Positions 33,753-63,678 of a DNA stretch of 64,000 nt are shown here, in pieces. The translations under genes and the position numbers were made by a program. Location: the IMG/VR virus record IMGVR_UViG_3300024518_004461, positions 47,009 through 111,008 of that record; one strand, written 5' to 3'. The notes under the pieces are model-generated. The model made no database searches. It was not told the origin of the DNA and saw only the letters and a program-made list of their open reading frames with translations. Numbering within the stretch: position 1 is the stretch's first letter; every line of letters begins with the position of its first letter. The stretch is from a virus.

Positions 33753-34613
33753 TTGAAAAATGCGGTTGCAAAATTAGTTATAGTATTTATGATGTTCATT
33801 ACTTTTATGGGATGTGCATCATGTGCGTCAAGCACAGCCCTATTTGGGCCAGGAGATTTATTCAGAGATAAAAGACGTTCCTTCATCAAGATTGATATTT
33901 ATAAAAACATCTACCTAACAAAAACCTCCTCTGCGGTAGCCGAAGCAAATTTAGAAGAATATGAAATTGATTTGCGCTCATCAGCTTCGGGCTTTATTGT
34001 TGGACACGATAGAGAAATTACACTCGTAGGAACTTCAGCGCACGTTTGCAGTATTCTTTACGGCAATCAAATAAATTATTTTGTGCAGGACTACTCACCT
34101 AAGAACCCTGAATGGAAGATGACCGAAAGGGCTTCATATATCCTAAACGATTACAAAGGTGAAACATATGCGGCAATTCCAATTGCTTTTGATTTTGAAG
34201 CCGATATATGTATACTGGGTTCAGCCAAGATATCGCGTCCAGCATTGAAAATTTCTAATTCTAAGCCAATAATTGGAGAGAAGTATTATAACATAGCCGC
34301 CCCTATGGGATTGTGGTCTTCTAAAATGATCCCGTTATTTGAAGGATTTTATTTGGGTAGTAAGAAGGTTCGTAGCAACCGAAAAACTTCGTATGTTTTT
34401 TCTATTCCTGCCAAGGGTGGATCTTCGGGCTCCCCAATACTGAATAGTTATGGTGAAGTTGTTGGAGCATTACACTCTGCTTATAGAGGGTTTGAAAATT
34501 TGTGTATGGCTACCACAAATAAAGAGATTTACTTAATCTATCGTAAATCTATGAGAAAATTATTGAAAGATTATGATAAATATAAACTTATCATTGACAT
34601 TATAAATATTTAA
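33753..34613 (+). CDS. Trypsin-like serine protease with signal/lipoprotein peptide
   Basis: Catalytic triad motifs SAHVC, DIC and GGSSGSP, plus a hydrophobic N-terminus with Cys. Confidence 0.85.
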   Translation: MKNAVAKLVIVFMMFITFMGCASCASSTALFGPGDLFRDKRRSFIKIDIYKNIYLTKTSSAVAEANLEEYEIDLRSSASGFIVGHDREITLVGTSAHVCSILYGNQINYFVQDYSPKNPEWKMTERASYILNDYKGETYAAIPIAFDFEADICILGSAKISRPALKISNSKPIIGEKYYNIAAPMGLWSSKMIPLFEGFYLGSKKVRSNRKTSYVFSIPAKGGSSGSPILNSYGEVVGALHSAYRGFENLCMATTNKEIYLIYRKSMRKLLKDYDKYKLIIDIINI

Positions 34614-34819
34614 TAGACTACGTGAATATCCACTTCATGGCTGGATGTACCTTCTAGATCGATTGGTCTAGATTTCCCATTTAAATCTTTTATGATTATC
34701 ACACCCTCATCGTTATGTGGGTCTACTTGATAACATGTTATTTCTGCTGGCCCTTCACAAAAAGTTTCCTTTGTGTTGCGATGCGTATATAGTAAAAAGA
34801 CTTTATCTCCGATGTTCAT
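34610..34819 (-). CDS. Small SH3/KOW-like hypothetical protein
   Basis: Starts MNIGDKV. A promoter TTGATC-17-TAAGGT ends 6 nt before the ATG. Confidence 0.6.
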   Translation of the reverse strand: MNIGDKVFLLYTHRNTKETFCEGPAEITCYQVDPHNDEGVIIIKDLNGKSRPIDLEGTSSHEVDIHVVY

Positions 34820-41769: not shown

Positions 41770-42003
41770 TTATGATTCTTTTTGTATTTCCGATAACATA
41801 AAGTTCTCGGTTGAACCATCTGTTTTACGAATGCGAGCAAATACAAAACAACGATTTGCCCTCATCTTTTCATTATAAATTTTTATTATATAACCATATT
41901 CTTTGGTATTCCCTAGGTGAGCCCACGAAACTAAATCACCAACCTTAAAAATATCTAAATATCGGCTACCAAAGGCATCGCCATCTTCTACTTGTTTGCC
42001 CAT
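41770..42003 (-). CDS. SH3/KOW-like microprotein (dispersed family member)
   Basis: FKVGDLV..GYI motif. Confidence 0.6.
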   Translation of the reverse strand: MGKQVEDGDAFGSRYLDIFKVGDLVSWAHLGNTKEYGYIIKIYNEKMRANRCFVFARIRKTDGSTENFMLSEIQKES

Positions 42004-42449
42004 TGAATATAGGTATAAACACACTTGGCTGTTAAGTCATTATACCTCTCCTCACTATAATATAATGATAAGCGATCTGCTAGTTTCTTTCCTCGTCGCC
42101 ATGCTTCGAGTTCTTCCGATATGCAATCCACTTTATATTTGGGGCTACGCGCTAATTGTTTATTAGTGGTGGCATAAGCATACATCCTTGCTGTGGCTGG
42201 ATATGCTTTCTCGTAGTTTTCCCAGTTTGATTGAATAAGCAAGTGACCACATTCATGTAATAAAGAATAAAATTGTTTTTCTATTCCTTGGCGTGTGCTT
42301 ATGTTTATAAGCTTGCTAGATGGTAACATTTCGTCTTGATTAAGATAATCTAGATCAAGTGTCCACCCTTTTTTAATAAGCCACAACGTAAGCTCGCCCA
42401 TTCCGGCTTCAAATAGTTTCTTTTCTAGTTCCTTGTCTAATATAGTCAT
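41988..42449 (-). CDS. Zincin-like metallopeptidase
   Basis: LHECGH and EELEAW motifs, a GGAGG SD, and promoter TTGACC-17-CATAAT at 42475-42503. Confidence 0.7.
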   Translation of the reverse strand: MTILDKELEKKLFEAGMGELTLWLIKKGWTLDLDYLNQDEMLPSSKLINISTRQGIEKQFYSLLHECGHLLIQSNWENYEKAYPATARMYAYATTNKQLARSPKYKVDCISEELEAWRRGKKLADRLSLYYSEERYNDLTAKCVYTYIQWANK

Positions 42450-48318: not shown

Positions 48319-48537
48319 TCAACACTCATTCTTCTTCTCCTTTTGAGCAAATAGCTCAAGCTCGGGCTCATCCATATCCATCCAAAACGAAAGCTTTTCT
48401 TTCGCCCAGTGTGCATAGACACCCATCTTATTTCCGCCATTAACATAAGGATTTGGTCCTGTTTTCAGCACCAACCCATAATCACCGCAAGCGGAAACTA
48501 TCATATCTCCAATTTTGAATCTATTCCTGTTCATCAT
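48319..48537 (-). CDS. SH3/KOW-like microprotein (dispersed family member)
   Basis: FKIGDMI..YGLV..HW..LELF motif. Confidence 0.6.
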   Translation of the reverse strand: MMNRNRFKIGDMIVSACGDYGLVLKTGPNPYVNGGNKMGVYAHWAKEKLSFWMDMDEPELELFAQKEKKNEC

Positions 48538-48823: not shown

Positions 48824-50080
48824 TTAGAATTGATCTTCTTCAGTAGAGTTTATTAATGCTAAAGTTGAAGATTCTCCACCACTAATAATCTGTGAAACCC
48901 TATCAAAATAGCCTGTACCGACTTCTCGTTGGTGCTTTACAGCAGTAAATCCATTATGAACTTGATCAAATTCTTTTTGTTGCAATTCAGAATAAGCAGT
49001 CATCCCTAAATCTTTATAATCCCTAGCCAAAGAAAACATACTATAATTTAATGAATGGAATCCAGCTAGAGTGACAAACTGGAATTTGTATCCCATCCTT
49101 TCTAGAGAATTTTGGAACATCGCAATTGTATATTTGTCTAAATGCTTTTCCCAATTAAAAGATGGGGAGCAGTTATAAGCCAATAATTTATCTGGAAATT
49201 TCGAATGTATTGCATCGGCAAATTTCTTTGCCTCCTCAAGTGAGGGAGTTGAAGTCTCAAGCCATAGCAAATCGGCGAAAGGAGCATAAGCTAAACCACG
49301 AGCGATCCCCATTTCTAAACCACCTGTGATTTTATAAAATCCCTCCGGTGTTCTTTCGCCAGTCATAAATTTATGATCTCGCTCATCCACATCAGAGGTA
49401 ATAAGCTTCGCGCTATTGGCATCAGTGCGAGCAATCAACACAGTTGGAGTGTCGCACACATCAGCCGCCAATCTTGCCGCAGTCAAGGTACGAATAAATT
49501 GGCTTGTTGGAACAAGAACTTTTCCGCCCATATGCCCGCATTTCTTTTCAGAAGCCAACTGATCTTCGAAGTGTACACCCGCCGCGCCAGCCTCAATCAT
49601 TCCCTTCATCAACTCATAAGCGTTCAGCGGTCCACCAAAGCCCGCTTCAGCGTCCGCAACGATTGGCGCATAATAATCAATTTGATTATTTCCTTCAACA
49701 CTTTCGATTTGGTCGGCTCTCTGAAAAGCTTTATTAATTTTCTTAACAACTTGTGGAACACTGTTCGCTGGATAAAGACTTTGATCAGGATACATGTCAC
49801 CAGCAAGGTTTGCGTCAGCCGCAACTTGCCAGCCACTAAGATAGATTGCTTTCAATCCAGCTTTGACCTGTTGTACCGCTTGGTTTCCCGTAAGGGCTCC
49901 TAGGGCCCGCACAGCGTCTTTTTTATTTAGTAAGTCCCATAACTTTTCGGCTCCATCTTTAGCAAGGGTATATTCAATTTTCTTGCTCCCTCTAAGTTCA
50001 AGCACGTCCTTTTTATTATAGGATTTCTCAATTCCATTCCATCTATTTATCATTGGTAAATGTTCCCCCCAATCATCCAC
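48824..50080 (-). CDS. aceA: Isocitrate lyase
   Basis: [27 protein letters not shown], the catalytic [19 protein letters not shown] and [11 protein letters not shown] motifs. Confidence 0.97.
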
Positions 50081-51569
50081 ATAAATTATCGTAACACTCT
50101 AAAGTCAGAAAGTCAATTATTTCCTCACTAAAGCATAACTTATTTAGAATTATACTTGTTTCTTCAAACTTTTTGTAGTGTTCAAATTTTTTTATTTCAG
50201 AGTTTATCACCAATCCAAGATATTTGTTTGTGACCTGCTTTCCATTAGATAAATATATTTTGTGTTTTCGCCACTGCCAAATTTGGGCTCTAGAGATTTC
50301 TGCCGTGGCAGCATCTTCCATAAGATTATCAATTGGGACACATCCATTACCATTTATCCAAGAATTAATATATTGAAAGGCAATAGATATATTTTTTCTT
50401 AAAGCAAAATCAGTACACGGACCTTTTGGAGCCCGCAAGAGATCAGAAGATTCAATAGAATAATTTAAACAAAGTTGTTTATCAATTTGGTTGTCGGCTG
50501 GCATATGTTCATCAAAAATATCTTTAGCAATATCAACTAAAAAAGGATGAGCAACCCAAGTACCATCATGTCCGTCCTGAACCTCACGTAATTTGTCAGC
50601 CTTTACTTTTCTCATCGCAATATCATTTGCTTCCGGGTCGTCCTTGATTGGTATTTGTGCTGCCATTCCTCCAATCGCGTGAGCGCCACGTTTATGACAA
50701 GTCTGTATCAATAGTTGTGTATAGGATCGCATAAAGTGCTGTGTCATTCCTACTTCATCACGATCAGGTAATACCGCGTCTCGAACATGAGAAAGCGTTT
50801 TTATAAAACTAAAAATATAATCCCATCGCCCGCAGTTTAATCCAGCAGAATGTGCTTGTAACTCATAAAGTATTTTATCCATTTGAAAGGCTGCGGGTAA
50901 TGTCTCAATAAGAACGGTTGCCCTAATTGTTCCTAGTGGGAGATCAAAAGATTTTTCAGAAAAAGAAAAAATATCACTCCAAAGGGCGGCTTCCAAATAG
51001 TCCTCAATCTTGGGTAAATAAAAATATGGTCGTGTTCCGTTTTTTAGAAGTTGTTTATGATTATGAAAAAAGTATAATCCAAAATCAAAAAGACTTGCCG
51101 GAATATTATTATAATTTTTTTCTAACAAGTGTAGTCCGCGAGGTCGAACAAACAGAGTGGCTACTTTTTTATTTAGTTTATATTCCTTCTGTGTTTCGGG
51201 ATCAATAAAGTCTATTTTTTTTCTTACCGCATCATAAAGATTTTGTTGTCCCTCCATACAATTTTCCCAAGTAGGAGAATTAGAATCTTCAAAGTCAGCC
51301 ATGAAAACATTTGCCCCTGAGTTTAGGGCACTGATAATCATTTTCCTAACTGGTGGTCCTGTAATCTCAACTCGTCTATCTAAAATGTCTTCAGGTGGTG
51401 GTAGCACTTTCCAATGTGGATCTTTGCTTTCTACATTCATTATATGTGCTGGTATTTTACCTTTTCGGTTTTGTCGGTTTAGTAATAGTTTTTTAATTTG
51501 TGGCTCAAATCTATCCTGTAAAACATCCAAAAATAATTTGGTGTCATAGGACAAAATATCTTTTGTCAT
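50073..51569 (-). CDS. aceB: Malate synthase A
   Basis: [53 protein letters not shown] and [12 protein letters not shown] motifs. Confidence 0.97.
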
Positions 51570-51572
51570 TTA

Positions 51573-51992
51573 TTATCCTTTTGAAAATTCTGCATCTCTA
51601 TACAGTGCGTAATAATAGTGTTCTATTGCGTGGTCTAAACACAAAGTTTTATAATAACTCCAATTTCTCCACTTCGCAGAACAATATAGTTCCCCTGCGT
51701 CTCCGCAATATTCACAGGTATGATAGCTTAAGATTTCACAGCTTTTTTTTACAATATCAATTATGTTGTCACTGTCGTCTATGCAAATATCTAAGACTCC
51801 AAATTTCTCCTGTATAGAAACAAATTCGGGGAATTTAAGTTCTTCTCCCATTTCTCCATCTATATAAGTTTGTATTGCAAGGCACATGTGGTCAATGATT
51901 GTAAACCATCCATTATTGCATGTGATACAATTTTTAGGAAATAATTGAGGGTACTTTTCATAGAGTGTATCCAGTTCTTGTGATTCACTCAT
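51573..51992 (-). CDS. Conserved phage hypothetical protein (QEKFG.L + zinc finger)
   Basis: GW..II, QEKFGVL and CEYCG..TLC..H motifs. Confidence 0.75.
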   Translation of the reverse strand: MSESQELDTLYEKYPQLFPKNCITCNNGWFTIIDHMCLAIQTYIDGEMGEELKFPEFVSIQEKFGVLDICIDDSDNIIDIVKKSCEILSYHTCEYCGDAGELYCSAKWRNWSYYKTLCLDHAIEHYYYALYRDAEFSKG

Positions 51993-52031
51993 GGTATAAT
52001 AACTATAGCATAAGTTTTATTATTCTTAAAT

Positions 52032-52062
52032 AAAAAAGGCACTCCCCGAAAGAGGAGTGCCC
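52032..52062 (-). terminator. Intrinsic terminator
   Basis: GGCACTCCTC-TTTC-GGGGAGTGCC followed by T6. Confidence 0.85.
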
Positions 52063-52086
52063 AAAAACATTATAGTTTTTTGTGAG

Positions 52087-52326
52087 TCAGATTACAGATT
52101 TAGACGTGGGGAAACGCCCGCGAATCTTGGAGTTAAAAAACTGACCCTTGGAGTCGGCACTCTTAAAGTTATTCAACGTTGCGCGTGATACGCCATCATA
52201 ATTGAAAACAGTAGTGGGTGCAGTGTGAAGAACAACGGACAGTTGTTCGGTTAGTGGATTATAGCCAATTGATTTGACTAAACTTGATTTAACTTCTTGC
52301 ATATTTTTTCCTTGGTGATCACTCAC
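52087..52326 (-). CDS. KTSC domain protein
   Basis: VKSS.VKSIGY...Y.GV...ADSKGQFFN..IRG pattern. Confidence 0.85.
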   Translation of the reverse strand: MSDHQGKNMQEVKSSLVKSIGYNPLTEQLSVVLHTAPTTVFNYDGVSRATLNNFKSADSKGQFFNSKIRGRFPTSKSVI

Positions 52327-52341
52327 CTATTGATTACAAGT

Positions 52342-52370
52342 ATTATACCAGAGGAAAATAGAAAGATCAA
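52342..52370 (-). promoter_or_regulatory. sigma70-type promoter
   Basis: TTGATC-17-TATAAT with an extended TG. Confidence 0.7.
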
Positions 52371-52603
52371 GCTTTTTTTACTTTAGATAAAATAATAATT
52401 TTTTCGTGATTTACTTCATGATAAAGTCTTCCTGCGGAGGAAAGAACATTATATTTTAATCGACGCCCGTTGTTCCAGCCACTACCGGGGGGAATTATTT
52501 CTTTAATCATTCCGTAGATATATGGATCTTCTTTATCAGTCCATCGAACGTTTGGCTTTCGAAACATTACCAAATCACCCTTGCTTGCTTTATCATTTAT
52601 CAT
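52367..52603 (-). CDS. SH3/KOW-like microprotein
   Basis: KGDLV..YGMI. Confidence 0.65.
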   Translation of the reverse strand: MINDKASKGDLVMFRKPNVRWTDKEDPYIYGMIKEIIPPGSGWNNGRRLKYNVLSSAGRLYHEVNHEKIIILSKVKKA

Positions 52604-52805
52604 TTTTTGCTCTTGCTAACAAAACAATATGCTTCCCGAGTTCAGGATAAACTTCGCCGTCATGCCACCTTACCATCATATAACATATATCATCGCCATC
52701 AGTAAAAACATTAATAACAATTCCTGTGTGACCTTTCACACCAAGTAAATCTTCACGGTAAGTTACTAGATCTCCAATATTATATATTATATCTTTATGG
52801 ATCAC
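52593..52805 (-). CDS. SH3/KOW-like microprotein
   Basis: IGDLV..GIVI..VRW. Confidence 0.7.
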   Translation of the reverse strand: MIHKDIIYNIGDLVTYREDLLGVKGHTGIVINVFTDGDDICYMMVRWHDGEVYPELGKHIVLLARAKNDK

Positions 52806-52833
52806 ATTAATAAATAGATAGTAAAAAACTGTT

Positions 52834-53034
52834 TTAGGATTGATGGCCTCTTTGACCTTTTGCTATAAGATAGAGTTGTCTGGATTGTAGCCATCTTATT
52901 TCCTCATCACTCCAAAGACACTTAATGTTATTGGGCATAACTGCAATAATAATTCCATAGCCACCAGTCTTACTAGACAAGATTGATTTCTGTCTTACGA
53001 GATCTCCTACGGAGAATACGGAAAGTCTTTTCAT
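52834..53034 (-). CDS. SH3/KOW-like microprotein
   Basis: FSVGDLV..GIII..CLW. Confidence 0.7.
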   Translation of the reverse strand: MKRLSVFSVGDLVRQKSILSSKTGGYGIIIAVMPNNIKCLWSDEEIRWLQSRQLYLIAKGQRGHQS

Positions 53035-53042
53035 ACATATAA

Positions 53043-53264
53043 CTACTTCTTGCCCCGAGAAACTAAATCAATGGAGTGCCCAAACAGCCACGAGGTTGCA
53101 CCACCGCACCATCTTATCTTATACTTGTTCGCGAGAACAGGATGTTTGTGAGGAGCATCTTTACAAACATCAAGAATAATTCCGTACCAATCTTTTTCAT
53201 CAAAGACGGTACTGCTTAGATTAGATTTTATCAAATCGCCTTTATCAAATTCCATCATGCACAC
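53043..53264 (-). CDS. SH3/KOW-like microprotein
   Basis: FDKGDLI..GIIL..IRW. Confidence 0.7.
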   Translation of the reverse strand: MCMMEFDKGDLIKSNLSSTVFDEKDWYGIILDVCKDAPHKHPVLANKYKIRWCGGATSWLFGHSIDLVSRGKK

Positions 53265-53470
53265 TTCGCCCTGGCTTCTATTTTTAATTGTTCTTCCACT
53301 TCATACATCCACTCGCCATACTCCCAAGCAACTTTATACATCGGTGCTCTCTTGTACGATAAGTGTTCTTGGTATATTATTTCGACAATAACTCCGGTAT
53401 AGGGTCGGAGTGTGTGGCTAACCAGATCGCCGATTTCAAATTTATTTCTCATTTTTATTTCCTTTCGCAA
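53255..53470 (-). CDS. SH3/KOW-like microprotein
   Basis: FEIGDLV..GVIV..VAW. Confidence 0.7.
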   Translation of the reverse strand: MRKEIKMRNKFEIGDLVSHTLRPYTGVIVEIIYQEHLSYKRAPMYKVAWEYGEWMYEVEEQLKIEARAKCA

Positions 53471-53651
53471 GTATAATCATGTGTTTGGGAAACTCAAGAG
53501 TCCGCGTATGTGGATTGCCCCACGGAAAGTTTAGCCACCGTACTTCAAGATAGTCACGATCACTGTTTTTACCCGTTAAGACTTCGCAAATATACCCTCG
53601 TCTATTAGGGTGTTTGGTTTCACAAACAAGATCACCCTTTTCAAAAAACAT
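53442..53651 (-). CDS. SH3/KOW-like microprotein
   Basis: FEKGDLV..GYI..VRW. Confidence 0.7.
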   Translation of the reverse strand: MFFEKGDLVCETKHPNRRGYICEVLTGKNSDRDYLEVRWLNFPWGNPHTRTLEFPKHMIILAKGNKNEK

Positions 53652-53803
53652 CAGTATTCCTCCAAGATTTTTTTAATCTTTCTAATCTTTTGTCGCGTCT
53701 TGTTGCGCTTCGTTAATTTATGATCGTGTGCGCCCGCTTTCCGTTTATAAAAAGCATTTGCGTCCCGGCCGCTGTCCCATATTTTTCTTCTATGTTTTCG
53801 CAC
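53651..53803 (-). CDS. 50-aa highly basic protein (not in ORF track)
   Basis: GTG start with GAGGTG SD; MRKHRRKIWDSGRDANAFYKRKAGAHDHKLTKRNKTRQKIRKIKKILEEY. It fills the gap exactly. Confidence 0.6.
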   Translation of the reverse strand: MRKHRRKIWDSGRDANAFYKRKAGAHDHKLTKRNKTRQKIRKIKKILEEY

Positions 53804-54011
53804 GAACCACCACCTCTACTACGTCCCAGTTTCCATAACATTTATAAATCCTACAAGGTTTTTCGATATCATGCCATTTAATATCTGCGAACTGCGAACG
53901 ATATTTACCGTTGTCGGGATACTCTCTGCCAAGCTTCACGATGACGCCCAATTCGCGTGTCGTTCTTACCGTCACCAAATCTCCAATATTAAAATCTGTT
54001 GCGTCCATCAC
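53790..54011 (-). CDS. SH3/KOW-like microprotein
   Basis: FNIGDLV..GVIV..IKW. Confidence 0.7.
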   Translation of the reverse strand: MMDATDFNIGDLVTVRTTRELGVIVKLGREYPDNGKYRSQFADIKWHDIEKPCRIYKCYGNWDVVEVVVRAKT

Positions 54012-54181
54012 GCCACCTTTATTAATCCAATCCCACTATGAATATCGGACGTGCCGTTGGACCACCGAACTTTTAAAGCACCTTGATCTGTAAATCCGAA
54101 GACAATACCCCTTCGCATTTTAAAGTATTCATTCTGAGTTTTTATTCGCACCAGATTTCCAACTTTAAATTCTTTATGCAC
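54008..54181 (-). CDS. SH3/KOW-like microprotein
   Basis: FKVGNLV..GIV..VRW; probable GTG start. Confidence 0.65.
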   Translation of the reverse strand: MHKEFKVGNLVRIKTQNEYFKMRRGIVFGFTDQGALKVRWSNGTSDIHSGIGLIKVA

Positions 54182-54383
54182 GTCTTTCACTTTTCCTTCG
54201 TCGTCGCAAATTTTTCTCGTTCCCTTCAAGGATAGGAAGCAATTTATTAACATCCACAATAGAAATGGTTCCATTATTTTGTTCAACCATCGCATCGTCA
54301 CCAACCACATCCACAATTCTAACACGGCAGGGGCGATTGTGCAAGCCCATACGAACTTTTGCTATTTCATTTTTCTTAAACAT
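54174..54383 (-). CDS. Small SH3-like hypothetical protein
   Basis: 69-aa beta-rich ORF, a divergent array member. Confidence 0.6.
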   Translation of the reverse strand: MFKKNEIAKVRMGLHNRPCRVRIVDVVGDDAMVEQNNGTISIVDVNKLLPILEGNEKNLRRRRKSERRA

Positions 54384-54618
54384 TTTTCTTTGCCTTTGCT
54401 ATTAATTTAAGTTTACTAGGTTGAGCCCAGAAGGTTCCATAATTATCTGCCCAACACACTTTTATCATAAGCCCACCAGGACCGGGGCTTGGTACGTCTT
54501 CACCAATCCCCACCACGACACCGAGTTTTTTAGCGAACGAATCCCATGTAATGCGCTCCACAAGATCACCAATTTCTAATTTATAAACATCATTGTTGTA
54601 ACTCATTTTTTGCCTCAC
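54376..54618 (-). CDS. SH3/KOW-like microprotein
   Basis: LEIGDLV..GVVV..VCW. Confidence 0.7.
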   Translation of the reverse strand: MRQKMSYNNDVYKLEIGDLVERITWDSFAKKLGVVVGIGEDVPSPGPGGLMIKVCWADNYGTFWAQPSKLKLIAKAKKNV

Positions 54619-54796
54619 TAACTAATTCCAGATTTTGTTCCAATAGCCATCGTTTTTTTTCGTTGGCAAAATAAATTTGATATGCATACACTTTGGGGTT
54701 ATCCGGGTGCGCAGTTCGATCTGAAATTTTCATGACAACACCAAAACCAAAATCGCAGAACCTATTCGACGAAACTAAATCTCCAACATTAAACAT
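54590..54796 (-). CDS. SH3/KOW-like microprotein
   Basis: FNVGDLV..GVVM..LELVS. Confidence 0.7.
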   Translation of the reverse strand: MFNVGDLVSSNRFCDFGFGVVMKISDRTAHPDNPKVYAYQIYFANEKKRWLLEQNLELVSEAKNELQQ

Positions 54797-54977
54797 TTTC
54801 TATCTCATTCGCCCAAAGCCAAACCCTTCGACCGTCCGGTAAATGCACAAGCCATTCTGCCGTGGTAATAGCCATTTGTTCGCCTTCACAGGGATTCTTG
54901 CCTTGTTTAATAATAATGCCTAAATCGCTTTCCATATAAACATTAAGTATCTTTACTAAATCGCCAGATTTAAACAT
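54789..54977 (-). CDS. SH3/KOW-like microprotein
   Basis: FKSGDLV..GIII. Confidence 0.7.
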   Translation of the reverse strand: MFKSGDLVKILNVYMESDLGIIIKQGKNPCEGEQMAITTAEWLVHLPDGRRVWLWANEIENV

Positions 54978-55188
54978 TTACAAATTCCTCCAATTCCCAC
55001 CCTAGATACCACGAATCGACTCCGACCAAGCAACGAAGAAAGTAGGACCATTGACCACCAGTTTGAGAAGTGCTTGTAACAACGCCATAATCATCCTCTC
55101 CATTAGTGCGCGTTTTTACTTTAACCATGTCGCCCACATCAAAAACTTTAATACCTAACCAATCATGCATTTGATTTTCCTTTCGCAA
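54970..55188 (-). CDS. SH3/KOW-like microprotein
   Basis: FDVGDMV..GVV. Confidence 0.7.
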   Translation of the reverse strand: MRKENQMHDWLGIKVFDVGDMVKVKTRTNGEDDYGVVTSTSQTGGQWSYFLRCLVGVDSWYLGWELEEFVNV

Positions 55189-55402
55189 GCAAATTTAATT
55201 CATTCGTCCAGATGCGCCAGCTTGAGCCAGGATGCCCCTCACATTCTTCATGCTTGAGCCACGTAACGATTGCGATCTTAGTCTCAACGCCTCCACAGAC
55301 TTGCTCAAAGCCATTATAGCCCCATCCAGTGAAGACACCTTGTGAACCAGGAGCTTGAATGTCTTCCACAAGATCACCAATACAAAATTCTTCAGGATTC
55401 AC
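55163..55402 (-). CDS. SH3/KOW-like microprotein
   Basis: FCIGDLV..GVF..VTW. Confidence 0.7.
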   Translation of the reverse strand: MNPEEFCIGDLVEDIQAPGSQGVFTGWGYNGFEQVCGGVETKIAIVTWLKHEECEGHPGSSWRIWTNELNLLAKGKSNA

Positions 55403-55610
55403 GAGACACCTTCCTTATCCATTTATAGGACATAATTTGATTTTCTCCACAAGGCAAGTGAACCACATAATAATCTTTTGACATACCAACTTGTTCAACA
55501 ACAATCCCCAAAGTTCCCGCAAGTATATCCCGACCCTCAATAGGGCCATCCAGAGAATCGATAACCTCAACCAATTCACCGATAATAAAGCTTGACGGAA
55601 ATTTTTTCAC
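55392..55610 (-). CDS. SH3/KOW-like microprotein
   Basis: FIIGELV..GIVV. Confidence 0.7.
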   Translation of the reverse strand: MKKFPSSFIIGELVEVIDSLDGPIEGRDILAGTLGIVVEQVGMSKDYYVVHLPCGENQIMSYKWIRKVSRES

Positions 55611-55834
55611 TTGGACACACTCGCAACTAATTCAAGACTCTTGGCATAATAATGCTTCCGCAAGTTTTTAGTTAATTCGGGCGAGTTTGACTTAATCCAC
55701 TTTATTCGAACAAGTTGCCGACCACTAAACATACCCACGTCTTCTATAATAATGCCAAGCGCATCTTGATTACGCCAAGTTATAGACTTTTTGTTTTTGA
55801 CTAAATCTCCTCTTCGGAATTTATAATTTTTCAT
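55607..55834 (-). CDS. SH3/KOW-like microprotein
   Basis: FRRGDLV..GIII..IKW..SLELVA. Confidence 0.7.
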   Translation of the reverse strand: MKNYKFRRGDLVKNKKSITWRNQDALGIIIEDVGMFSGRQLVRIKWIKSNSPELTKNLRKHYYAKSLELVASVSK

Positions 55835-56052
55835 CGTTCTTTCCCCGCAACTAATTCAAGACTTGTATCATAATAGCTTTGACCAAGGTCAACGTAATTC
55901 CCACTTATCCATTTTACTTTTAGGACTTGCGACTTTGCAAATTTCGGCAAACCAATGTCCGTCACCCTAGTCACAACGCCTAGCGTACTTGAATCACGTC
56001 GGTGTAAAACCGCGTGTGTGACAAGATCCCCATATTTAAACATTGTCTTCAT
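55831..56052 (-). CDS. SH3/KOW-like microprotein
   Basis: FKYGDLV..GVV..VKW..SLELVA. Confidence 0.7.
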   Translation of the reverse strand: MKTMFKYGDLVTHAVLHRRDSSTLGVVTRVTDIGLPKFAKSQVLKVKWISGNYVDLGQSYYDTSLELVAGKER

Positions 56053-56287
56053 TTCTTACCACCAATTCAACTTTCCGCGATATACACCGCACTGGATGAG
56101 GCCGACCACACCATAAGATCACAGGCAATACCAACCCCGTGCCAAGTTTATGTTTTCCCGTAACAATTCCATAACAATAATCTTTAGGCAAGTCCTTGTT
56201 GCAGAAATGACGAACAACTAAATCGCCTTTTTTTGGATGCGTCCCACATTTATAAGTGCGGATTCTTTCAGCGTCCCAATCATGCAC
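56036..56287 (-). CDS. SH3/KOW-like microprotein
   Basis: KKGDLV..GIV..ILW..VELV. Confidence 0.7.
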   Translation of the reverse strand: MHDWDAERIRTYKCGTHPKKGDLVVRHFCNKDLPKDYCYGIVTGKHKLGTGLVLPVILWCGRPHPVRCISRKVELVVRNEDNV

Positions 56288-56510
56288 TTGCTATCAACTC
56301 CATATCACAAGCCCACGTACCACCAATGTTTCCATTAGGAAATCGTACAGAATAAATTATTTCGCCAGTTATACAAGCCTTTCTTGCCTTCACGACAATA
56401 CACGTATGATGCTCCCAGTCGTCGCCCGCAACATTTAAAGTTCTATTTCTAACCAAGTCACCAGGTTTGTACATTGTTGGTTTATTTTTTTCTTTCACCG
56501 ACATTCGCAT
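56280..56510 (-). CDS. SH3/KOW-like microprotein
   Basis: YKPGDLV..MELIA. Confidence 0.7.
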   Translation of the reverse strand: MRMSVKEKNKPTMYKPGDLVRNRTLNVAGDDWEHHTCIVVKARKACITGEIIYSVRFPNGNIGGTWACDMELIASA

Positions 56511-56764
56511 TACCCCGCGATCAACTCAACTTCATCAGGTTTCACGATTGGCTTTTTTCCATTTGGCAAAAGTATCCGCCAATATTTGGACGCACCATTA
56601 TCATCGCGCTTAAGCACAATTCCCAGATAAGGACCATCACCAAAACCAAGTTCACTTGTAGTAAACTCACCAGGACGTTTAATTCGAACCAACCAACCGG
56701 GCTCAAGCGTTTCGCCAATTGTATGCTTTACAAAACTTCCATCTTTAACATTTGATTTAATCAT
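56510..56764 (-). CDS. SH3/KOW-like microprotein
   Basis: LEPGWLV..GIVL..VELIA; probable start MIKSN. Confidence 0.65.
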   Translation of the reverse strand: MIKSNVKDGSFVKHTIGETLEPGWLVRIKRPGEFTTSELGFGDGPYLGIVLKRDDNGASKYWRILLPNGKKPIVKPDEVELIAG

Positions 56765-57026
56765 TATTTTTTTCCTCACGGTATCGCGTGTCTTCTGCCA
56801 GCCAATCGGAATGGATTGCCCAAGGATCTCCCCATAATCGTTTTCGAATTGAACTAATCCGATAAGGATTGCTGACAAAGACAGCCGAACGACCGCGATA
56901 GGCGCGGAAGTCGGCTTTGACTTTGTATTTTTTCAACAATTCTAAAAGTTTTGGATCGTCCGCACTTAGATCGTGTCCAAGGAAGAACCAAACGCAACTT
57001 TTGTTTTTTGTTGAAAATTGAGACAT
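56757..57026 (-). CDS. Hypothetical protein
   Basis: 89-aa ORF coupled to its neighbours. Confidence 0.6.
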   Translation of the reverse strand: MSQFSTKNKSCVWFFLGHDLSADDPKLLELLKKYKVKADFRAYRGRSAVFVSNPYRISSIRKRLWGDPWAIHSDWLAEDTRYREEKNND

Positions 57027-57244
57027 TATTTTACAGTCTCGCTTTTAACAGGATTGACCATGTTTTCCATAAAGGCATAATGGCATTGACCATCACTCAA
57101 ATATTGAGAAGCTTGAGCGATATACTTTTGGTGCATATCCCAAACCATTCCATTATTAATGATCTCTTGCATAAACGAGATTTTTTCCTCGCTTGTCATT
57201 GTCTCACTTGAGAACTTGTCCATTTTTTCGATGATTCCAAACAT
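57026..57244 (-). CDS. Conserved phage hypothetical protein
   Basis: Q.IINNG.VW..Q..Y...A pattern. Confidence 0.65.
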   Translation of the reverse strand: MFGIIEKMDKFSSETMTSEEKISFMQEIINNGMVWDMHQKYIAQASQYLSDGQCHYAFMENMVNPVKSETVK

Positions 57245-57286
57245 TGTTTAATTCCTTGGCTTGTTCAGCCGGTTAAAGGGTTAAGA

Positions 57287-57514
57287 TTAAGAGTCCAAAA
57301 ATTCTTTGGTTTCCAAGCAAGTAATATCGCCTGTATGCATACCAAAAGTATGTCCAGTATAAATGTTTAATTGACCTTGATTGTCCGGCAAAACTTCAGC
57401 CCTACCCTTGAATAATTCTTTGACGACAAAATCCAGATCTTCTAGGCTGCTGATCTCTAAACGCAAGTATTTTGCGAGAACTCGAATTTCGTTTTGTTTT
57501 TTTTCGTTTAGCAT
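57287..57514 (-). CDS. Hypothetical protein
   Basis: DNQGQLNIYTG motif and AAGGA SD. Confidence 0.65.
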   Translation of the reverse strand: MLNEKKQNEIRVLAKYLRLEISSLEDLDFVVKELFKGRAEVLPDNQGQLNIYTGHTFGMHTGDITCLETKEFLDS

Positions 57515-57515
57515 G

Positions 57516-57677
57516 TTATTTTTTCCTTGGCTTATTCAGCCACTTTGTTAAGTTAATCTCGCGAGTAATGCTCGCACTGAGGTTGCTTGGTTTGGGGTTA
57601 TCGACTAACGCGATTGCCGACCCGATTGTCAAGACCGTCAAGACCGCGATTAGAATTGCTTTTATTTTTTCTTTCAT
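57516..57677 (-). CDS. 53-aa membrane-anchored protein (not in ORF track)
   Basis: MKEKIKAILIAVLTVLTIGSAIALV...; promoter TTGACC-18-TATATT at 57695-57724. Confidence 0.5.
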   Translation of the reverse strand: MKEKIKAILIAVLTVLTIGSAIALVDNPKPSNLSASITREINLTKWLNKPRKK

Positions 57678-57775
57678 CCCTTACCTTCACCTATAATATA
57701 GCATTAATTTATTATGTCGGTCAAGCAGGTAAACCCTACATTATGTCGATTTATTGATCTTTTCTGTGGATACCC

Positions 57776-58045
57776 TTACGAATTTCGACGGGCTTTGGCT
57801 AAAATCACAATTTTTTTGATCCACCAATTTTTTTCGTCCAACAAATACCACATTTCACGGATTTCCCCGGTGTGTTTGAGCCACTTGATTTTAACTCCGG
57901 TATTGTGCAAGCCGGATATTGGATAATTATGTTTTTTAAGTTTTATCACGATCCCGTGAATTGGTTTAATTCTGATTCCGCTGCTAACAAGATCACCAAT
58001 ATCGAATCTGTCAAGGAGTGATTTATTATCTGTTTTTCTTAGCAT
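57776..58045 (-). CDS. SH3/KOW-like microprotein
   Basis: DRFDIGDLV..GIVI..IKW. Confidence 0.7.
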   Translation of the reverse strand: MLRKTDNKSLLDRFDIGDLVSSGIRIKPIHGIVIKLKKHNYPISGLHNTGVKIKWLKHTGEIREMWYLLDEKNWWIKKIVILAKARRNS

Positions 58046-58310
58046 TGGTTTTGCCTTTTGCTACAATTTCTAATTTTGTTAAGGCACCTGTATTGCGATT
58101 ATTGTAATGGACCCTTGACTGATAATCGTTAATGTATTGAATTGTAACTTCTACTTTTCGTTCTGGGAGGATTGGTGTTTCGTGTGTTCTTATTGCAGAC
58201 ACCACGCCATAGGTTATGAGAGCGTTACGCTTACCGTCTTTTATGCCGCCCCAATTCGTATGCTTTACCAAATCGCCAAGGTCAAATCTGTCAAATATAT
58301 TTTGGCTCAT
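58026..58310 (-). CDS. SH3/KOW-like microprotein
   Basis: DRFDLGDLV..GVV..LEIVA. Confidence 0.7.
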   Translation of the reverse strand: MSQNIFDRFDLGDLVKHTNWGGIKDGKRNALITYGVVSAIRTHETPILPERKVEVTIQYINDYQSRVHYNNRNTGALTKLEIVAKGKTNAKKNR

Positions 58311-58570
58311 TTTTTTGCCTCCGCGATTAGTTCGATTAGTTCGATTGAGCTGTCGTCGTTTTCTGTATAGACACTGGTGTATTCATAATCGTTCCATTTG
58401 ATTCTAACTTGATAATAACTGCTATCTTGTGTTGTGCCGTTTCCGCACATTGTTGTTTTAAATTCGGTGGCTCCGACAACGATGCCTAGTTTGTTTGTGT
58501 CGGTTGTGACTGTGTTGCGCCATTCGACAAGATCACCGACTTGGAGTTTGTTGAATTGTTGTTTAGTCAT
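58307..58570 (-). CDS. SH3/KOW-like microprotein
   Basis: LQVGDLV..GIVV..IKW..IELIA. Confidence 0.7.
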   Translation of the reverse strand: MTKQQFNKLQVGDLVEWRNTVTTDTNKLGIVVGATEFKTTMCGNGTTQDSSYYQVRIKWNDYEYTSVYTENDDSSIELIELIAEAKK

Positions 58571-58815
58571 TATATTTTCTTTGCCGCCGAAACTAATTCT
58601 ATGCGCCCGATTGTTAGATTTCCGTCGCTATATTGACTAACATATGTATCCCCTTTATAGCTCCATAATATCTTCGCGATGTTAATAGTGCGCGAAGCGT
58701 TATTGAACATGCGAGTTACAACGCCAAGCCTGACTGGTTCTATGTATTGTGGTTCGGTTTCTATGCGCTTAACTAAGTCGCCTATTTGTAGATTTTTGAA
58801 TTCTTCTTTTGTCAT
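58570..58815 (-). CDS. SH3/KOW-like microprotein
   Basis: LQIGDLV..GVV..ILW..IELVS. Confidence 0.7.
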   Translation of the reverse strand: MTKEEFKNLQIGDLVKRIETEPQYIEPVRLGVVTRMFNNASRTINIAKILWSYKGDTYVSQYSDGNLTIGRIELVSAAKKI

Positions 58816-58962
58816 GCTCTCATATCTCCAAAATTTCCAGCCGCATAGTGAATGTACTTAGCGCACTTTTTGGCGGGCCCGATATCCCCCCGGACATACA
58901 TTCCGGGGAGGGGGCTGGGGTCGGTGCCCCATAGCCACGCAACCCCGGTTGCACACTGCAAT

Positions 58963-59277
58963 CTAACTTGCTTTGCAAGCTGTCTTGCGCTTTGCTCCTC
59001 GCTTATACATTTTTAAATTGCGTCCAGTCTTCCGCAGGTTGGAAGCCTTCACGCTTGCGCTCAACGCTGGCACACCCAACAGTTCAGACACTTCTTTCAG
59101 GCTGTTGCAATTGTTCCACGCTTCAGTAAACATCTCCTTGCTTATCTTCTCTGGTCGTCCACGTTTCTTTGGCTGCGCTGGTTGCGCTGTCAACATAGGT
59201 TGCGCAACTTCTCTTGCGAGAACTTCTAGGTCCACAATGATTGTTGGTTCTGTATTCATGTTATTGGTTTCATTCAT
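58963..59277 (-). CDS. Putative HTH DNA-binding protein
   Basis: AT-hook-like KKRGRP and HTH-like SLKEVSELLG...KASNLRK. Confidence 0.6.
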   Translation of the reverse strand: MNETNNMNTEPTIIVDLEVLAREVAQPMLTAQPAQPKKRGRPEKISKEMFTEAWNNCNSLKEVSELLGVPALSASVKASNLRKTGRNLKMYKRGAKRKTACKAS

Positions 59278-59282
59278 CTTTT

Positions 59283-59570
59283 TTAATTCCTGGTCTTCAT
59301 CCATGTTAGGGGCAAAGGCTTAATCATATTAAGCATCGCACGTTGTTGTAATATATCTTCTGGTAATGTTTTTAAATCTGTAGCATAACCCGATGATATT
59401 AGTTCGTTCATTAAAGTTTCTATCAGTGGTGTGCCATATTTTTCCTTTGCGGTGGCAATTATCTCGGCACTCAAGGTTAAGTCATAGATCTGTAGAATCA
59501 CAGCCATTGATGCTGTAACCATACCTAAAGCTTTTTCTCTTTTTATTTTTATAGCCGCGACATCTTCCAT
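59283..59570 (-). CDS. Hypothetical protein
   Basis: 95-aa ORF coupled to the upstream gene. Confidence 0.65.
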   Translation of the reverse strand: MEDVAAIKIKREKALGMVTASMAVILQIYDLTLSAEIIATAKEKYGTPLIETLMNELISSGYATDLKTLPEDILQQRAMLNMIKPLPLTWMKTRN

Positions 59571-60838
59571 TATAGCACCAACACCCTTTCACTCTTTGGC
59601 TTGTGTCCGCCATAAGAGCGATTAGCGCCATATTTATCAGTGATCCACATTCGTTGGCACTTTGAACGAACAGGAGCAGGAGCCATCATGTCAGTAATGA
59701 TAATGTGACCGTCAAACTTTCCCTTATTGACAAACTTTGTAGGAGCATCAAAGCATGTCCCGCCATGTAAGACGCGCTCTCTTGCACGTTTCTCGCCTTT
59801 CTTCCAGACATAAACCTTTTCCTCGAAGACCTCATGGTCAAATGGTATTACTGTGAAGCTTGAAAACTTTGCTAGTTCCCCAAGCCAATCAAATACTTTT
59901 CCTAATAGTTCATCGCTAACCGATCCTGATTGGTCAATGCTGATTGCGATGCTTGCTCGGTGCATTGTACGACGACCAAATTTCTTTCCTGGTAGTCTGC
60001 GATTTCTTTTTGTTACCGATGTCTTATGTTCTGCCGCAACACTCGCTTTGATGAATGATGCAAGAACTTTTTTTGGGTCAAGCTTTGATTTTCTTGAGTT
60101 CCCGAATTTCTTAATTGACGAGCGCATCTTGTTTGACACACTGCCCCAACCTTTGGGCTGTCCGCCATCACCGTCACCATAGTCGCATTCTTGCGCAGCT
60201 TGGGCAACCGCATCGGCCAATCGTTTTTCTGCGATCATCTTTTCGGCTGACTCGCCTTCATCACCATCACCACCACCGTCGCTTGGTTCAAAATCCTCAT
60301 GGTCGTCGAATTGCCCTTGTGGTGAATCGCCTTTATTTTCTGGATTGTTTTCTTGATCCGCCTCAAGTTGTTTGGCGTACCAGTCCGAAGACATTTCGTA
60401 CATGCCTTCTAAAAATTTATGGCTCAAACGACCCGGCATTAAAACCCATTCAGGCGCGGTCGGTCGCATATTGTTTAAAGAATTGATTGCAAGATCCATC
60501 GCGCAATTGGCTAACTTCTTGTCGTACTCTGGCAAGGTTCGCCCGGTGCAATGCCCGAGACTTGCGTGATAAAGTTCGTGCATTAGCACCCACTTTTCGT
60601 CAGCCGCGCCATTTATGGGGAGTTGTGGGTTTTCGCCCGCAAGAAACGAAGGATTGTAAACCAATTCGAATCGTGCTTGATCTTTATTAAACCGGATACC
60701 CGCTGTCGCAACCGTAGTTGTCGCAACCTTGTTTAAATGTCGCGATAGGATCGCAAAAAACGGTTCGTCCTGTAGCATTTTGTAGATCCGCATATCCAAA
60801 TCGTATTGTGTTTCTGTTTTCGTTTCACTCTCAACCAT
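59570..60838 (-). CDS. DUF2201-like metallopeptidase + VWA domain protein
   Basis: EPFF, MHELYH, N.AMDLAIN, MIDAS motif IDQSGS, GGT.F and ITD. Confidence 0.85.
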   Translation of the reverse strand: MVESETKTETQYDLDMRIYKMLQDEPFFAILSRHLNKVATTTVATAGIRFNKDQARFELVYNPSFLAGENPQLPINGAADEKWVLMHELYHASLGHCTGRTLPEYDKKLANCAMDLAINSLNNMRPTAPEWVLMPGRLSHKFLEGMYEMSSDWYAKQLEADQENNPENKGDSPQGQFDDHEDFEPSDGGGDGDEGESAEKMIAEKRLADAVAQAAQECDYGDGDGGQPKGWGSVSNKMRSSIKKFGNSRKSKLDPKKVLASFIKASVAAEHKTSVTKRNRRLPGKKFGRRTMHRASIAISIDQSGSVSDELLGKVFDWLGELAKFSSFTVIPFDHEVFEEKVYVWKKGEKRARERVLHGGTCFDAPTKFVNKGKFDGHIIITDMMAPAPVRSKCQRMWITDKYGANRSYGGHKPKSERVLVL

Positions 60839-60844
60839 GCTTTA

Positions 60845-60874
60845 AGTATCCCATGTTTAGGTTAATGCTGTCAA
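60845..60874 (-). promoter_or_regulatory. sigma70-type promoter (leaderless arrangement)
   Basis: TTGACA-18-GATACT, ending 6 nt before the ATG at 60838. Confidence 0.6.
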
Positions 60875-62361: not shown

Positions 62362-63678
62362 CTAATCCACTAAACGGCTTTCTTCTTGAGAAGAAATTGC
62401 TTCCGGCACCATCCTCACCGATGACGGCTTACCTACCGTAGCGGGTGTTGATAGCCGAATCGATAAGAAGTGAGGATCTCTCTTCAATTCACTATACATG
62501 CGTTTAAGAAACATCCCTAACATTTTTAGGCGCACGGATCTTGTCTCTTGATCGTTTTTGCAGTGATGATAATAATCACTAGGATTGATCACTGTCCCAT
62601 GATAAATATCTTTGCCCTCTTGCATTTTGGATTCATCTGACAACTTCTTGTCTAAGCGAGCAATTTCATCGAAAAGACTGCCATGCGACCCCGGCTTAAC
62701 CACGTAACCCTTCATAAAAAGATCACCAATCACACCAACCACAAGGTGACTCATAAATTTCGATATCATTTGTGATGGGGCTCTTGCCGTTTGCTGCTCT
62801 GCCCCCAACATTGTAGCCGTTAAAACGTCTTGTGCAAACTTAAGGGCCTTTTGATCGTAGGGACAACCAGGATCACTCATTTCCAAATAACCCAAACCTT
62901 CATTATAAAACTTTTCTAAGTCTGTCTTCTTGAGCCCTTTATACCGCCTCAATTTGCTGCTTCCTGGCTGTGAAATTTCCTCCTGATAGGTTTGTAGCAA
63001 TAATTTTGCTACCAGCTCATCGTCCCCCATGCGTGAGAGCGGCTCTGCTTTTAGGAGACGCAATAAGCCAGGTCTTAAATTTTTAGACGTATCCCTCACT
63101 ACTTGGGCAATAGGGGTATCTCGGCAGTTCCGCAATTCTTGAGGAACAAGCGCAACACCGGCATTTATACGTTCAAACGTCAAAGCCAGTTCAGGACGAG
63201 TCAAGCCCACAAGCTCTACCCATGGAAGCGTACAGTCTGTCAAACGATCCTTAAGGCGTTGCGGTATTTCTTTATAAAAGTTATTGATCAGTTCCACCGA
63301 CTTTCCATCTGCGTCTGTAAACTCACCCGTAACACTAACTTTATTGTTCATAAAATCCGCGATTGCAGCCAGTCGATTGCGCCCATCAAGACCTGTAAAT
63401 TTAAACCCCTGACCATTGAAAGACTTATAATAGTTTGCTGAGTCAGTTTCTCCTCGGGCTTCGCAAGAAGCCAAAGACTCTTCAATACTCACCGCAATTA
63501 TAGGTTGCAAGGCAAAACCTGCCGTTGCACTTGATAAAAACTGTGAACTTTGTGCTCGGGTCCAAACTGGTCTACGTTGTAGCCCCTCTGGAAAGACTAT
63601 CTGTCCTGAATTCATCAGGTCAGCTACTTCGGGGAGAGATACTTCTCTCACCTTTTTTTTGTTACTAAAAAACGCCAT
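62362..63678 (-). CDS. DUF262 (ParB/GmrS-like) domain protein
   Basis: QRRPVW, LDGRNRL and FERINAG motifs. Confidence 0.75.
   Translation of the reverse strand: MAFFSNKKKVREVSLPEVADLMNSGQIVFPEGLQRRPVWTRAQSSQFLSSATAGFALQPIIAVSIEESLASCEARGETDSANYYKSFNGQGFKFTGLDGRNRLAAIADFMNNKVSVTGEFTDADGKSVELINNFYKEIPQRLKDRLTDCTLPWVELVGLTRPELALTFERINAGVALVPQELRNCRDTPIAQVVRDTSKNLRPGLLRLLKAEPLSRMGDDELVAKLLLQTYQEEISQPGSSKLRRYKGLKKTDLEKFYNEGLGYLEMSDPGCPYDQKALKFAQDVLTATMLGAEQQTARAPSQMISKFMSHLVVGVIGDLFMKGYVVKPGSHGSLFDEIARLDKKLSDESKMQEGKDIYHGTVINPSDYYHHCKNDQETRSVRLKMLGMFLKRMYSELKRDPHFLSIRLSTPATVGKPSSVRMVPEAISSQEESRLVD

Follow-up and report, generated by a model that had tools for sequence, protein, structure and literature searches.

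A tandem array of diverged KOW/SH3-like single-domain genes in a large uncultured marine myovirus

The stretch of DNA analysed here, called the window, is the final 64 kb (64,000 nucleotides) of the 111,008-bp viral contig IMGVR_UViG_3300024518_004461 from IMG/VR, a fragment of a large uncultured marine myovirus. All sizeable genes of the window are on the minus strand, and between 58815 and 52367 a series of 29 co-directional genes forms a dense array, of which 24 are candidates for small barrel proteins of 60–94 amino acids (aa) and five are unrelated to these. The array comprises 23 paralogs of one uncatalogued single-domain KOW/SH3-like family together with one relative by fold only. An earlier note on this DNA had described about 23 divergent SH3/KOW-like genes at 52367–58815, and 23 sequence-related genes were indeed recovered with a leave-one-out hidden Markov model (HMM).

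Membership and fold of the array

The proteins follow the pattern F-x-x-G-D-L-V, G-[IV]-[IV], [VI]-x-W and E-L-V-A, followed by a lysine-rich tail. Membership was judged by building the HMM without the sequence in question and then scoring that sequence alongside 100 of its own shuffles. Twenty array genes gave E-values of 1e-12 to 4e-4, one (56280–56510) gave a weaker value and two (56510–56764 and 56036–56287) are marginal. Two dispersed copies also pass. The earlier note had counted three further members outside the array, of which those at 41770 and 48319 stand while the third, 34610–34819, is rejected, with an E-value of 74 and an hhalign alignment of just six residues. An open reading frame cut by the contig end (63838–63999, minus strand) resembles strands 2–5 of a small barrel (WIGQVVEIRK...LTLF); as a member it too is rejected, its hhalign probability being 5% and its score on the family profile not significant. 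A profile search of the remaining 47 kb of the contig found no copies. No copy reaches a family at threshold in Pfam, PHROG, NCBIfam or PADLOC. The genes are listed below in their order of reading, with leave-one-out E-values; genes are also referred to by their higher coordinate. Two relatives cited in the list are the IMG/VR contig L094, about 96% identical in nucleotide (nt) sequence, and G002, with a terminase 84% identical.

58570–58815, minus strand: member, 81 aa (MTKEEFKNLQIGDLV...), E 4e-9
58307–58570, minus strand: member, 87 aa (MTKQQFNKLQVGDLV...), E 5e-11, reciprocal best paralog of 58570–58815
58026–58310, minus strand: member, 94 aa (DRFDLGDLV), E 5e-9, L094 ortholog 89% identical
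57776–58045, minus strand: member, 89 aa (DRFDIGDLV), E 8e-8, L094 ortholog 100% identical
56757–57677, minus strand: four unrelated small genes interrupting the array (57516–57677, 53 aa; 57287–57514, 75 aa; 57026–57244, 72 aa; 56757–57026, 89 aa), no family signal
56510–56764, minus strand: marginal member, 84 aa, GWLV replacing GDLV, E 0.036, L094 ortholog 98% identical
56280–56510, minus strand: member, 76 aa, E 0.0016
56036–56287, minus strand: marginal member, 83 aa, E 0.038, L094 ortholog 75% identical
55831–56052, minus strand: member, 73 aa, presence/absence cassette, E 9e-11
55607–55834, minus strand: member, 75 aa, E 2e-9, reciprocal best paralog of 55831–56052, with which it has an 18-nt identity in common
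55392–55610, minus strand: member, 72 aa (GELV), E 4e-4
55163–55402, minus strand: member, 79 aa, E 4e-5
54970–55170, minus strand: member, 66 aa (GDMV), presence/absence cassette, E 4e-5
54789–54977, minus strand: member, 62 aa, E 1e-10
54590–54796, minus strand: member, 68 aa, chimera relative to L094, E 1e-10
54376–54606, minus strand: member, 76 aa, the copy used as reference in modelling and in comparing orthologs, E 1e-12
54174–54383, minus strand: fold-only gene, 69 aa, basic C-terminal tail, E 80, hhalign probability 0.2
54008–54190, minus strand: member, 60 aa (GNLV; GTG start chosen), presence/absence cassette, E 2e-7
53790–54011, minus strand: member, 73 aa, E 1e-9
53651–53803, minus strand: unrelated Arg/Lys-rich gene, 50 aa, no family or Pfam signal, overlapping both neighbours
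53442–53651, minus strand: member, 69 aa, E 9e-5
53255–53452, minus strand: member, 65 aa, the copy nearest to YccV/HspQ, E 4e-8
53043–53255, minus strand: member, 70 aa, E 4e-11
52834–53034, minus strand: member, 66 aa, allele replaced in L094, E 3e-11
52593–52805, minus strand: member, 70 aa, E 5e-10
52367–52603, minus strand: last array member, 78 aa, E 7e-5 (19.1 bits; best shuffle 13.0)
48319–48537, minus strand: dispersed member, 72 aa, E 3e-6, just 5′ of the isocitrate lyase gene
41770–42024, minus strand: dispersed member, 84 aa, E 9e-6, syntenic G002 ortholog 51% identical

An AlphaFold2 model of 54376–54606, built with 25 paralogs as the alignment, is a five-stranded barrel with a predicted local distance difference test score (pLDDT) of 83. 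The copies are single-domain proteins of 60–94 aa that end a few residues past strand 5, with a conserved tryptophan on strand 3 and an ELVA-K C-terminus, and the insertions that distinguish the paralogs fall in the β1–2, β2–3 and β3–4 loops. Foldseek with this model returned only SH3-like barrels (CAP-Gly, PWWP, Spt5 KOW, Tudor, PetP and HspQ) at E-values of 0.015–0.2. In a structure search independent of Foldseek the top match was the KOW domain of Methanocaldococcus Spt5 (4zn3_A; Z 9.4, root-mean-square deviation 2.2 Å over 64 residues), above a plateau of Tudor, PWWP, BAH and CAP-Gly domains at Z of about 7.7. The model is thus as the earlier note had proposed, one small SH3/KOW-like fold. 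The gene at 54174–54383, modelled from its own 20 orthologs (pLDDT 79), is also predicted to be a five-strand barrel, with a disordered basic tail, and matches Tudor and designed SH3 barrels at Z 8.0–8.6. Plausibly, then, all 24 small genes belong to one fold class; 23 of them are homologous by sequence, and 54174–54383 is related by predicted fold only.

The Spt5 match bears on a reading of the proteins as nucleic-acid-binding regulators of KOW, LSm or Tudor-like type, which during infection would act on RNA, RNA polymerase or ribosomes to tune the stability or translation of mRNA, or transcription elongation. The structural matches of the family model also include NusG and ribosomal KOW proteins, and in a profile search of PDB sequences the best sub-threshold hits were a NusG KOW (E 0.06), followed by uL24 and eL21. 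The isoelectric points (pI) of the copies range from 4.4 to 10.6, and 15 of 26 are basic, often with lysine-rich tails. Small early barrels of T4 such as GoF affect mRNA stability (PMC12152347). On the other hand, seven copies are acidic (4.4–5.7), which argues against a uniform nucleic-acid-binding surface, and none of 27 copies matches KOW (PF00467) at the gathering score, the nearest approach being an E-value of 0.063 for one copy on KOWx_SPT5. Nor is there a sequence relation to GoF or MotB.1: kinship with either was rejected at an hhalign probability of 0.1 each, and the family profile has no match in the T4 genome (E ≤ 1). It is also hard to see why over 20 distinct RNA-binding barrels should be required, and this reading would seem rather unlikely.

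By sequence profile the closest known family is YccV/HspQ. On PF08755, where the cut-off is 22.8 bits, copy 53255–53452 reaches 22.3, and on TIGR02097 it has an E-value of 5e-6; the family profile aligns to Escherichia coli HspQ with an hhalign probability of 65%, over just 28 columns, and HspQ (5ycq) is among the Foldseek rows at an E-value of 0.09. The proteins might then modulate host AAA+ proteases such as Lon, or replication initiation, and so redirect host proteolysis. The match is confined to the first hairpin, however (residues 4–25, profile positions 2–23 of 101, or 22 positions), and to one copy, the other 24 of 25 having no match to PF08755, and HspQ is absent from the PDB-sequence profile matches at E ≤ 10. 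A role of this kind is considered very unlikely.

Duplication, turnover and selection

Neighbouring genes are more similar than random pairs of copies, with a mean normalised score of 0.117 for adjacent pairs against 0.092, a value reached in 0 of 10,000 permutations, which supports local duplication. Three neighbour pairs, 58815/58570, 56052/55834 and 53255/53034, are reciprocal best matches. The resemblances that the earlier note had quoted for neighbours are present, among them the N-termini DRFDIGDLV and DRFDLGDLV and the 18-nt identity at 55622 and 55846, which is exact where none is expected by chance. Its proposal of local duplication therefore holds, with the qualification that the events are old. 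The duplications in the array are dated in this way because mean identity to the reference copy is only about 20–30% among paralogs and DNA identity never exceeds about 18–30 nt. The recurrent DNA is limited to runs of 10–30 nt, coding for I-G-D-L-V or for the A-K-G-K tail, and no stretch of 7–10 residues is conserved across the paralog alignment.

Related contigs carry the array in syntenic position with 19–23 copies: L094 has 23 and both dispersed copies, and the metagenome contigs L106, L109 and L111 have 21, 21 and 19. In G002 the corresponding place, marked by orthologs of the KTSC gene and the Cys-rich gene of the flanks, holds at least 10 copies. These copies are at most 37% identical to those of the window, against 41–52% for the flanks, and the family copy at 48319 is absent from the syntenic stretch of G002. 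When the copies of 30 loci were clustered at ≥ 55% identity they fell into at least 54 orthogroups. About 15 copies form a backbone whose order is the same in many contigs, while more distant loci are reordered.

Individual genes come and go against this background. Genes 56052, 55170 and 54190 are presence/absence polymorphisms, as are the cassettes x1, x2, x3, x10 and x12. The unit 55831–56052 is missing in L094, L106, L109 and L111, is found in L103 and L105, and is flanked by about 21 nt of homology (56068–56048 and 55857–55837). In L106 and L111 the unit 54970–55170 is absent, the missing stretch beginning at its start codon and ending at the following one, and 54008–54190 is missing in L106, L109 and L111. 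Gene 53442–53651 is relocated in three loci (L115, L119 and L123). In L094, a single gene of 33–44% identity replaces both 58570–58815 and the following 58307–58570, and 52834–53034 is only 61% identical amid a background of 94–100%. The four genes that interrupt the array at 56757–57677, which have one weak DUF7417 match among them, are conserved, with nt identity to relatives of about 96%.

Breakpoints between the window and its close relatives lie at GDLV codons (58777), in an ELIAEAKK tail (58331), in the 21-nt homology around the 56052 unit and at start codons (55170 and 54190). The body of 54590–54796 matches L094 4733–4963 and its C-terminal tail L094 5152–5370, with two extra L094 genes between, so that it is a chimera of body and tail from different L094 genes, a signature of unequal recombination between paralogs. 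Orthologs of 54376–54606 come with either a long MSYNNDVYKLEIGDLV N-terminus or short MKFNVGDLI or MNNKFHIGDLI forms, and the existence of two kinds fits recombination at the start/GDLV junction. Judged from these alignments, the array evolves by whole-gene gain, loss, replacement and reordering, with breaks in the only DNA that the copies share, a turnover of cassettes across the population that the earlier note had not described.

In all 21 orthogroups with at least four distinct sequences the pairwise ratio of non-synonymous to synonymous substitution rates (dN/dS) is 0.10–0.50. By this measure the array genes are real and are kept by purifying selection within each orthogroup, each with its own conserved surface. 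The best-sampled orthogroup is that of 54606, with 24 distinct coding sequences and 37 proteins (36 orthologs at 50–97% identity). Here the strands and most loops hardly vary, and this holds for the copy-specific aromatic segment WADNYGTFW, in which Trp52, Tyr56, Gly57, Thr58 and Trp60 do not vary. The β2–β3 loop, by contrast, varies in length and sequence, with a dN/dS of 0.67 compared with 0.19 elsewhere. A conserved scaffold with hypervariable loops, as first proposed, thus describes the paralogs, which have a conserved strand core and varied loop lengths, but among orthologs it applies to β2–β3 only, where dN/dS is higher than elsewhere but not above 1.

The presence/absence polymorphism and the reshuffling could also be those of selfish or near-neutral passengers, spreading by recombination at shared junctions and of no benefit to the phage, and in the hyperplastic regions of T4-type phages small genes that are not essential are indeed numerous (Arbiol et al, 2010; PMC2839356). 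Purifying selection in every orthogroup tested, the order kept by the backbone and the conservation of copy-specific surface residues make this the least probable of the accounts considered.

The family extends well beyond these contigs. Its profile finds 395 clusters (50% identity; E ≤ 1e-3) among 1.84 billion representatives, nearly all of 58–94 aa and some containing proteins that begin MK[VI]GDLV. Matches in a collection of 5.8 billion proteins are unnamed, come from JGI, ENA and Tara samples and have no Pfam domain; many are 57–97% orthologs of single copies. Other large viral contigs (52–186 kb) carry 5–15 copies within 10–16 kb. The BFVD neighbours of the model are uncharacterised phage proteins, many with near-consecutive accession numbers, a hint that other uncultured viruses carry multi-copy sets; in the ESM Atlas the neighbours are viral clusters without names. 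Among GenBank phages no match was obtained with blastn of the array DNA or with tblastn of two single copies. In T4, Flavobacterium phage immuto, Microcystis phage Mel-JY01 as well as Synechococcus phage S-WAM2 the profile had no match at the thresholds applied. The complete contig G006, of 210 kb, whose DUF2201 gene is 44% identical to that beside the array, has no copy. The large-terminase relatives G001, G003 and G004 gave no copies; they lack the flanking genes too, and as they do not cover the array region they are uninformative. When bacterial and archaeal genomes were scanned with the alignment of orthologs, no relative emerged and hence no clue to the host.

Expression, surroundings and possible function

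The genes were said in the earlier note to be joined by overlapping start and stop codons, and this is so at 23 of the 28 junctions, with overlaps of 1, 4, 8, 11, 14, 17 or 20 nt. A Shine–Dalgarno-like word precedes 15 of 24 starts, against a background of 21%, and frequently lies inside the A-K-G-K or E-A-K tail (rich in Lys, Gly and Glu) of the preceding gene, which would give that tail a dual job. Between array genes, consensus scans turned up no promoter or terminator pairs, and the T4-type late-promoter word, TATAAATA, does not occur in or near the array. The signals and genes around it are as follows.

62362–63678, minus strand: gene upstream of the array with a weak GmrSD_N-like match (25.4 bits, cut-off 33.2)
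60845–60874, minus strand: σ70-like promoter match TTGACA-18-GATACT in a consensus scan, upstream of the DUF2201 gene
59570–60838, minus strand: DUF2201 metallopeptidase/VWA-like gene, upstream of the array
57695–57724, minus strand: σ70-like promoter match TTGACC-18-TATATT in a consensus scan, in a 98-nt gap, candidate start of a second unit
52370–52342, minus strand: σ70-like match in a consensus scan, before the KTSC gene
52087–52326, minus strand: KTSC-domain gene (PF13619, E 3e-15), directly downstream of the array and at the same place in G002
52037–52062, minus strand: strong intrinsic-terminator-like hairpin after the KTSC gene, an 11-bp stem with 7 GC pairs followed by a T run

The match at 60845–60874 is a candidate promoter for a unit that carries the first four array genes. 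With overlaps, Shine–Dalgarno-like tails and no promoters or terminators found between genes, it is most likely that long transcripts and coupled translation yield all of the copies together. The host-type, σ70-like character of the promoter matches suggests that the proteins are probably early.

Genes for a portal protein, a large terminase and a baseplate wedge protein are present on the contig, whose head and tail modules are far from the array. No isolate has a terminase more than 45% identical to this one; Flavobacterium phage immuto comes nearest, and T4-like cyanophages are at about 35%; IMG/VR holds about 300 terminase relatives, many at 64–98%. CheckV estimates for related fragments (156.6 kb as 71% and 87.9 kb as 48% complete) suggest a genome of roughly 180–220 kb. 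The flanks of the array consist of the DUF2201/VWA gene, two genes without a Pfam match, the KTSC gene and the Cys-rich gene. Just upstream of the first array gene is a GC-rich 147-nt spacer (58816–58962, minus strand) in a genome of about 38% GC, holding a CCCCGGA...TCCGGGG hairpin. The fold of 58816–58975 is not better than that of shuffles (z −0.76), and an Rfam search of 51500–60000 returned nothing beyond a chance-level CrcZ row and no match for the spacer. On the other side of the KTSC gene an isocitrate lyase gene (PF00463, E 7e-107) and a malate synthase gene (PF01274, E 4e-102) are adjacent and overlapping (48824–51569, minus strand), a glyoxylate-shunt pair in a phage; both are absent from the syntenic stretch of G002.

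Coupled translation would yield similar amounts of each copy, as would suit subunits that assemble together, whether as a hetero-oligomer, as beads on a string, as a multivalent scaffold or as a virion or structural accessory. Natural fusions occur in the family, namely the two-domain proteins P0003, P0005 and P0022 (125–143 aa) and P0002, of 727 aa, which alternates two barrel types in at least six repeats; a search for related loci from P0002, P0005 and P0030 found nothing. The 54606 ortholog is linked to the downstream 54174–54383 gene in 27 loci, reshuffled arrays included, and these two may be a functional pair. The gain and loss of single copies between close relatives that keep the others would not be expected of an obligate complex, however, and the distance from the head and tail modules also speaks against a structural role. 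Co-assembly of the array proteins is accordingly thought unlikely.

The reading most favoured, though short of probable, is that the proteins are stand-alone intracellular binding modules, expressed from host-type promoters and each with a different macromolecular target. The σ70-like promoters would drive the array, probably early, and the proteins would act inside the cell, where each barrel would recognise a different host or phage macromolecule. The spread of pI together with the copy-specific conserved surfaces points to many ligands rather than one nucleic-acid target, and turnover between strains together with host-type promoters fits accessory, probably early, host-directed factors. 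A pool of cassettes held by the population would leave strains with different sets, as expected of host take-over or counter-defence factors. The earlier note had likewise suggested a diversified repertoire of binders, with anti-defence, RNA binding and ribosome or RNAP binding as candidate roles.

Several observations weigh against this assignment of separate targets. No member matches the PADLOC defence-system models, and the array is surrounded by metabolic and DNA-modification genes, with no recognisable defence-related neighbours. The dN/dS of the β2–β3 loop, read from the alignments, amounts to relaxed or mixed rather than positive selection. From the natural fusions of two or more domains it could follow that the barrels cooperate and are not independent binders, and all of the promoter calls are consensus matches only.

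A bolder form of the proposal, which is put forward tentatively and is on balance doubtful, is that the array is a gene-cassette system without an integrase. The junction, made up of the tail and ribosome-binding site, the start codon and the GDLV codons, would serve as a portable recombination site, through which phages that infect a cell together would draw on a library, held by the population, of binders on one scaffold with one hypervariable loop, and strain-specific sets would be directed at local host defences or physiology.

Should the proteins turn out to bind particular host factors, such arrays would offer small natural inhibitors in abundance and add a new case of repertoire diversification by phages. 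The array is in any case a tractable system, with tiny, soluble-looking proteins, dozens of natural variants on one scaffold and contrasts of presence and absence between strains, and similar arrays in several large marine phage lineages mean that a functional answer would apply widely.

Comparison with known families and systems

The mini-barrel fold class is already recognised in phages, while no description of such arrays was found in the literature searched. With the KOW domains of Spt5, NusG, uL24 and eL21 the family has in common a small five-stranded barrel, and its hairpin at the N-terminus, F-x-x-GD-x-V ... G-x-[IV], is similar to the KOW motif. The array copies differ in that they stand alone, without an NGN domain or a ribosomal context, have no Pfam KOW match and number more than 20 paralogs per genome. 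YccV/HspQ (PF08755, TIGR02097) are likewise SH3-like barrels, but the alignment is limited to the first β-hairpin, about 22–28 residues of a Pfam profile of about 100 positions. In T4, GoF and MotB.1, as well as Frd.2, have an N-terminal barrel and a C-terminal domain and are placed in an LSm-like fold family (PMC12152347). They resemble the array proteins as small five-stranded barrels of T4-type phages with several diverged paralogs per genome; they differ in the added C-terminal domain and in being encoded by scattered genes, and GoF and MotB.1 have no sequence relation to the array proteins.

As to the arrangement of the genes, the PeSL cassettes of T4-type hyperplastic regions, described in the work of Arbiol et al cited above, offer a parallel in that whole small genes are inserted, deleted and replaced between close relatives at repeated junctions. 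In the array the repeated junction is coding sequence (tail, ribosome-binding site, start and GDLV codons) and not a promoter and stem-loop, so that the likeness is one of outcome and not of mechanism; moreover the array genes overlap, have no promoters or terminators between them and are all paralogous cassettes of one fold. The immunity arrays of bacterial polymorphic toxin systems (Zhang et al, 2012; PMC3482391) are also tandem sets of diverged small binder paralogs with turnover between strains. There the resemblance ends, since no toxin gene adjoins the array, no toxin domain is found in the genes that flank it, the genome is of lytic type and comparison with known immunity families revealed no relation.

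The broadest comparison is with the Viral AlphaFold Database, where SH3/Tudor-like small barrels are reported as the largest phage-only fold clusters (PMC12487901). The portion of that paper relied on here treats fold clusters and mentions neither cassette turnover nor arrays that exceed 20 genes. The array family fits this SH3/Tudor-like class, as indicated by two independent models and by matches to Tudor, PWWP, KOW and SH3 domains, and the array could serve to study the role of a fold that is very common in phages.

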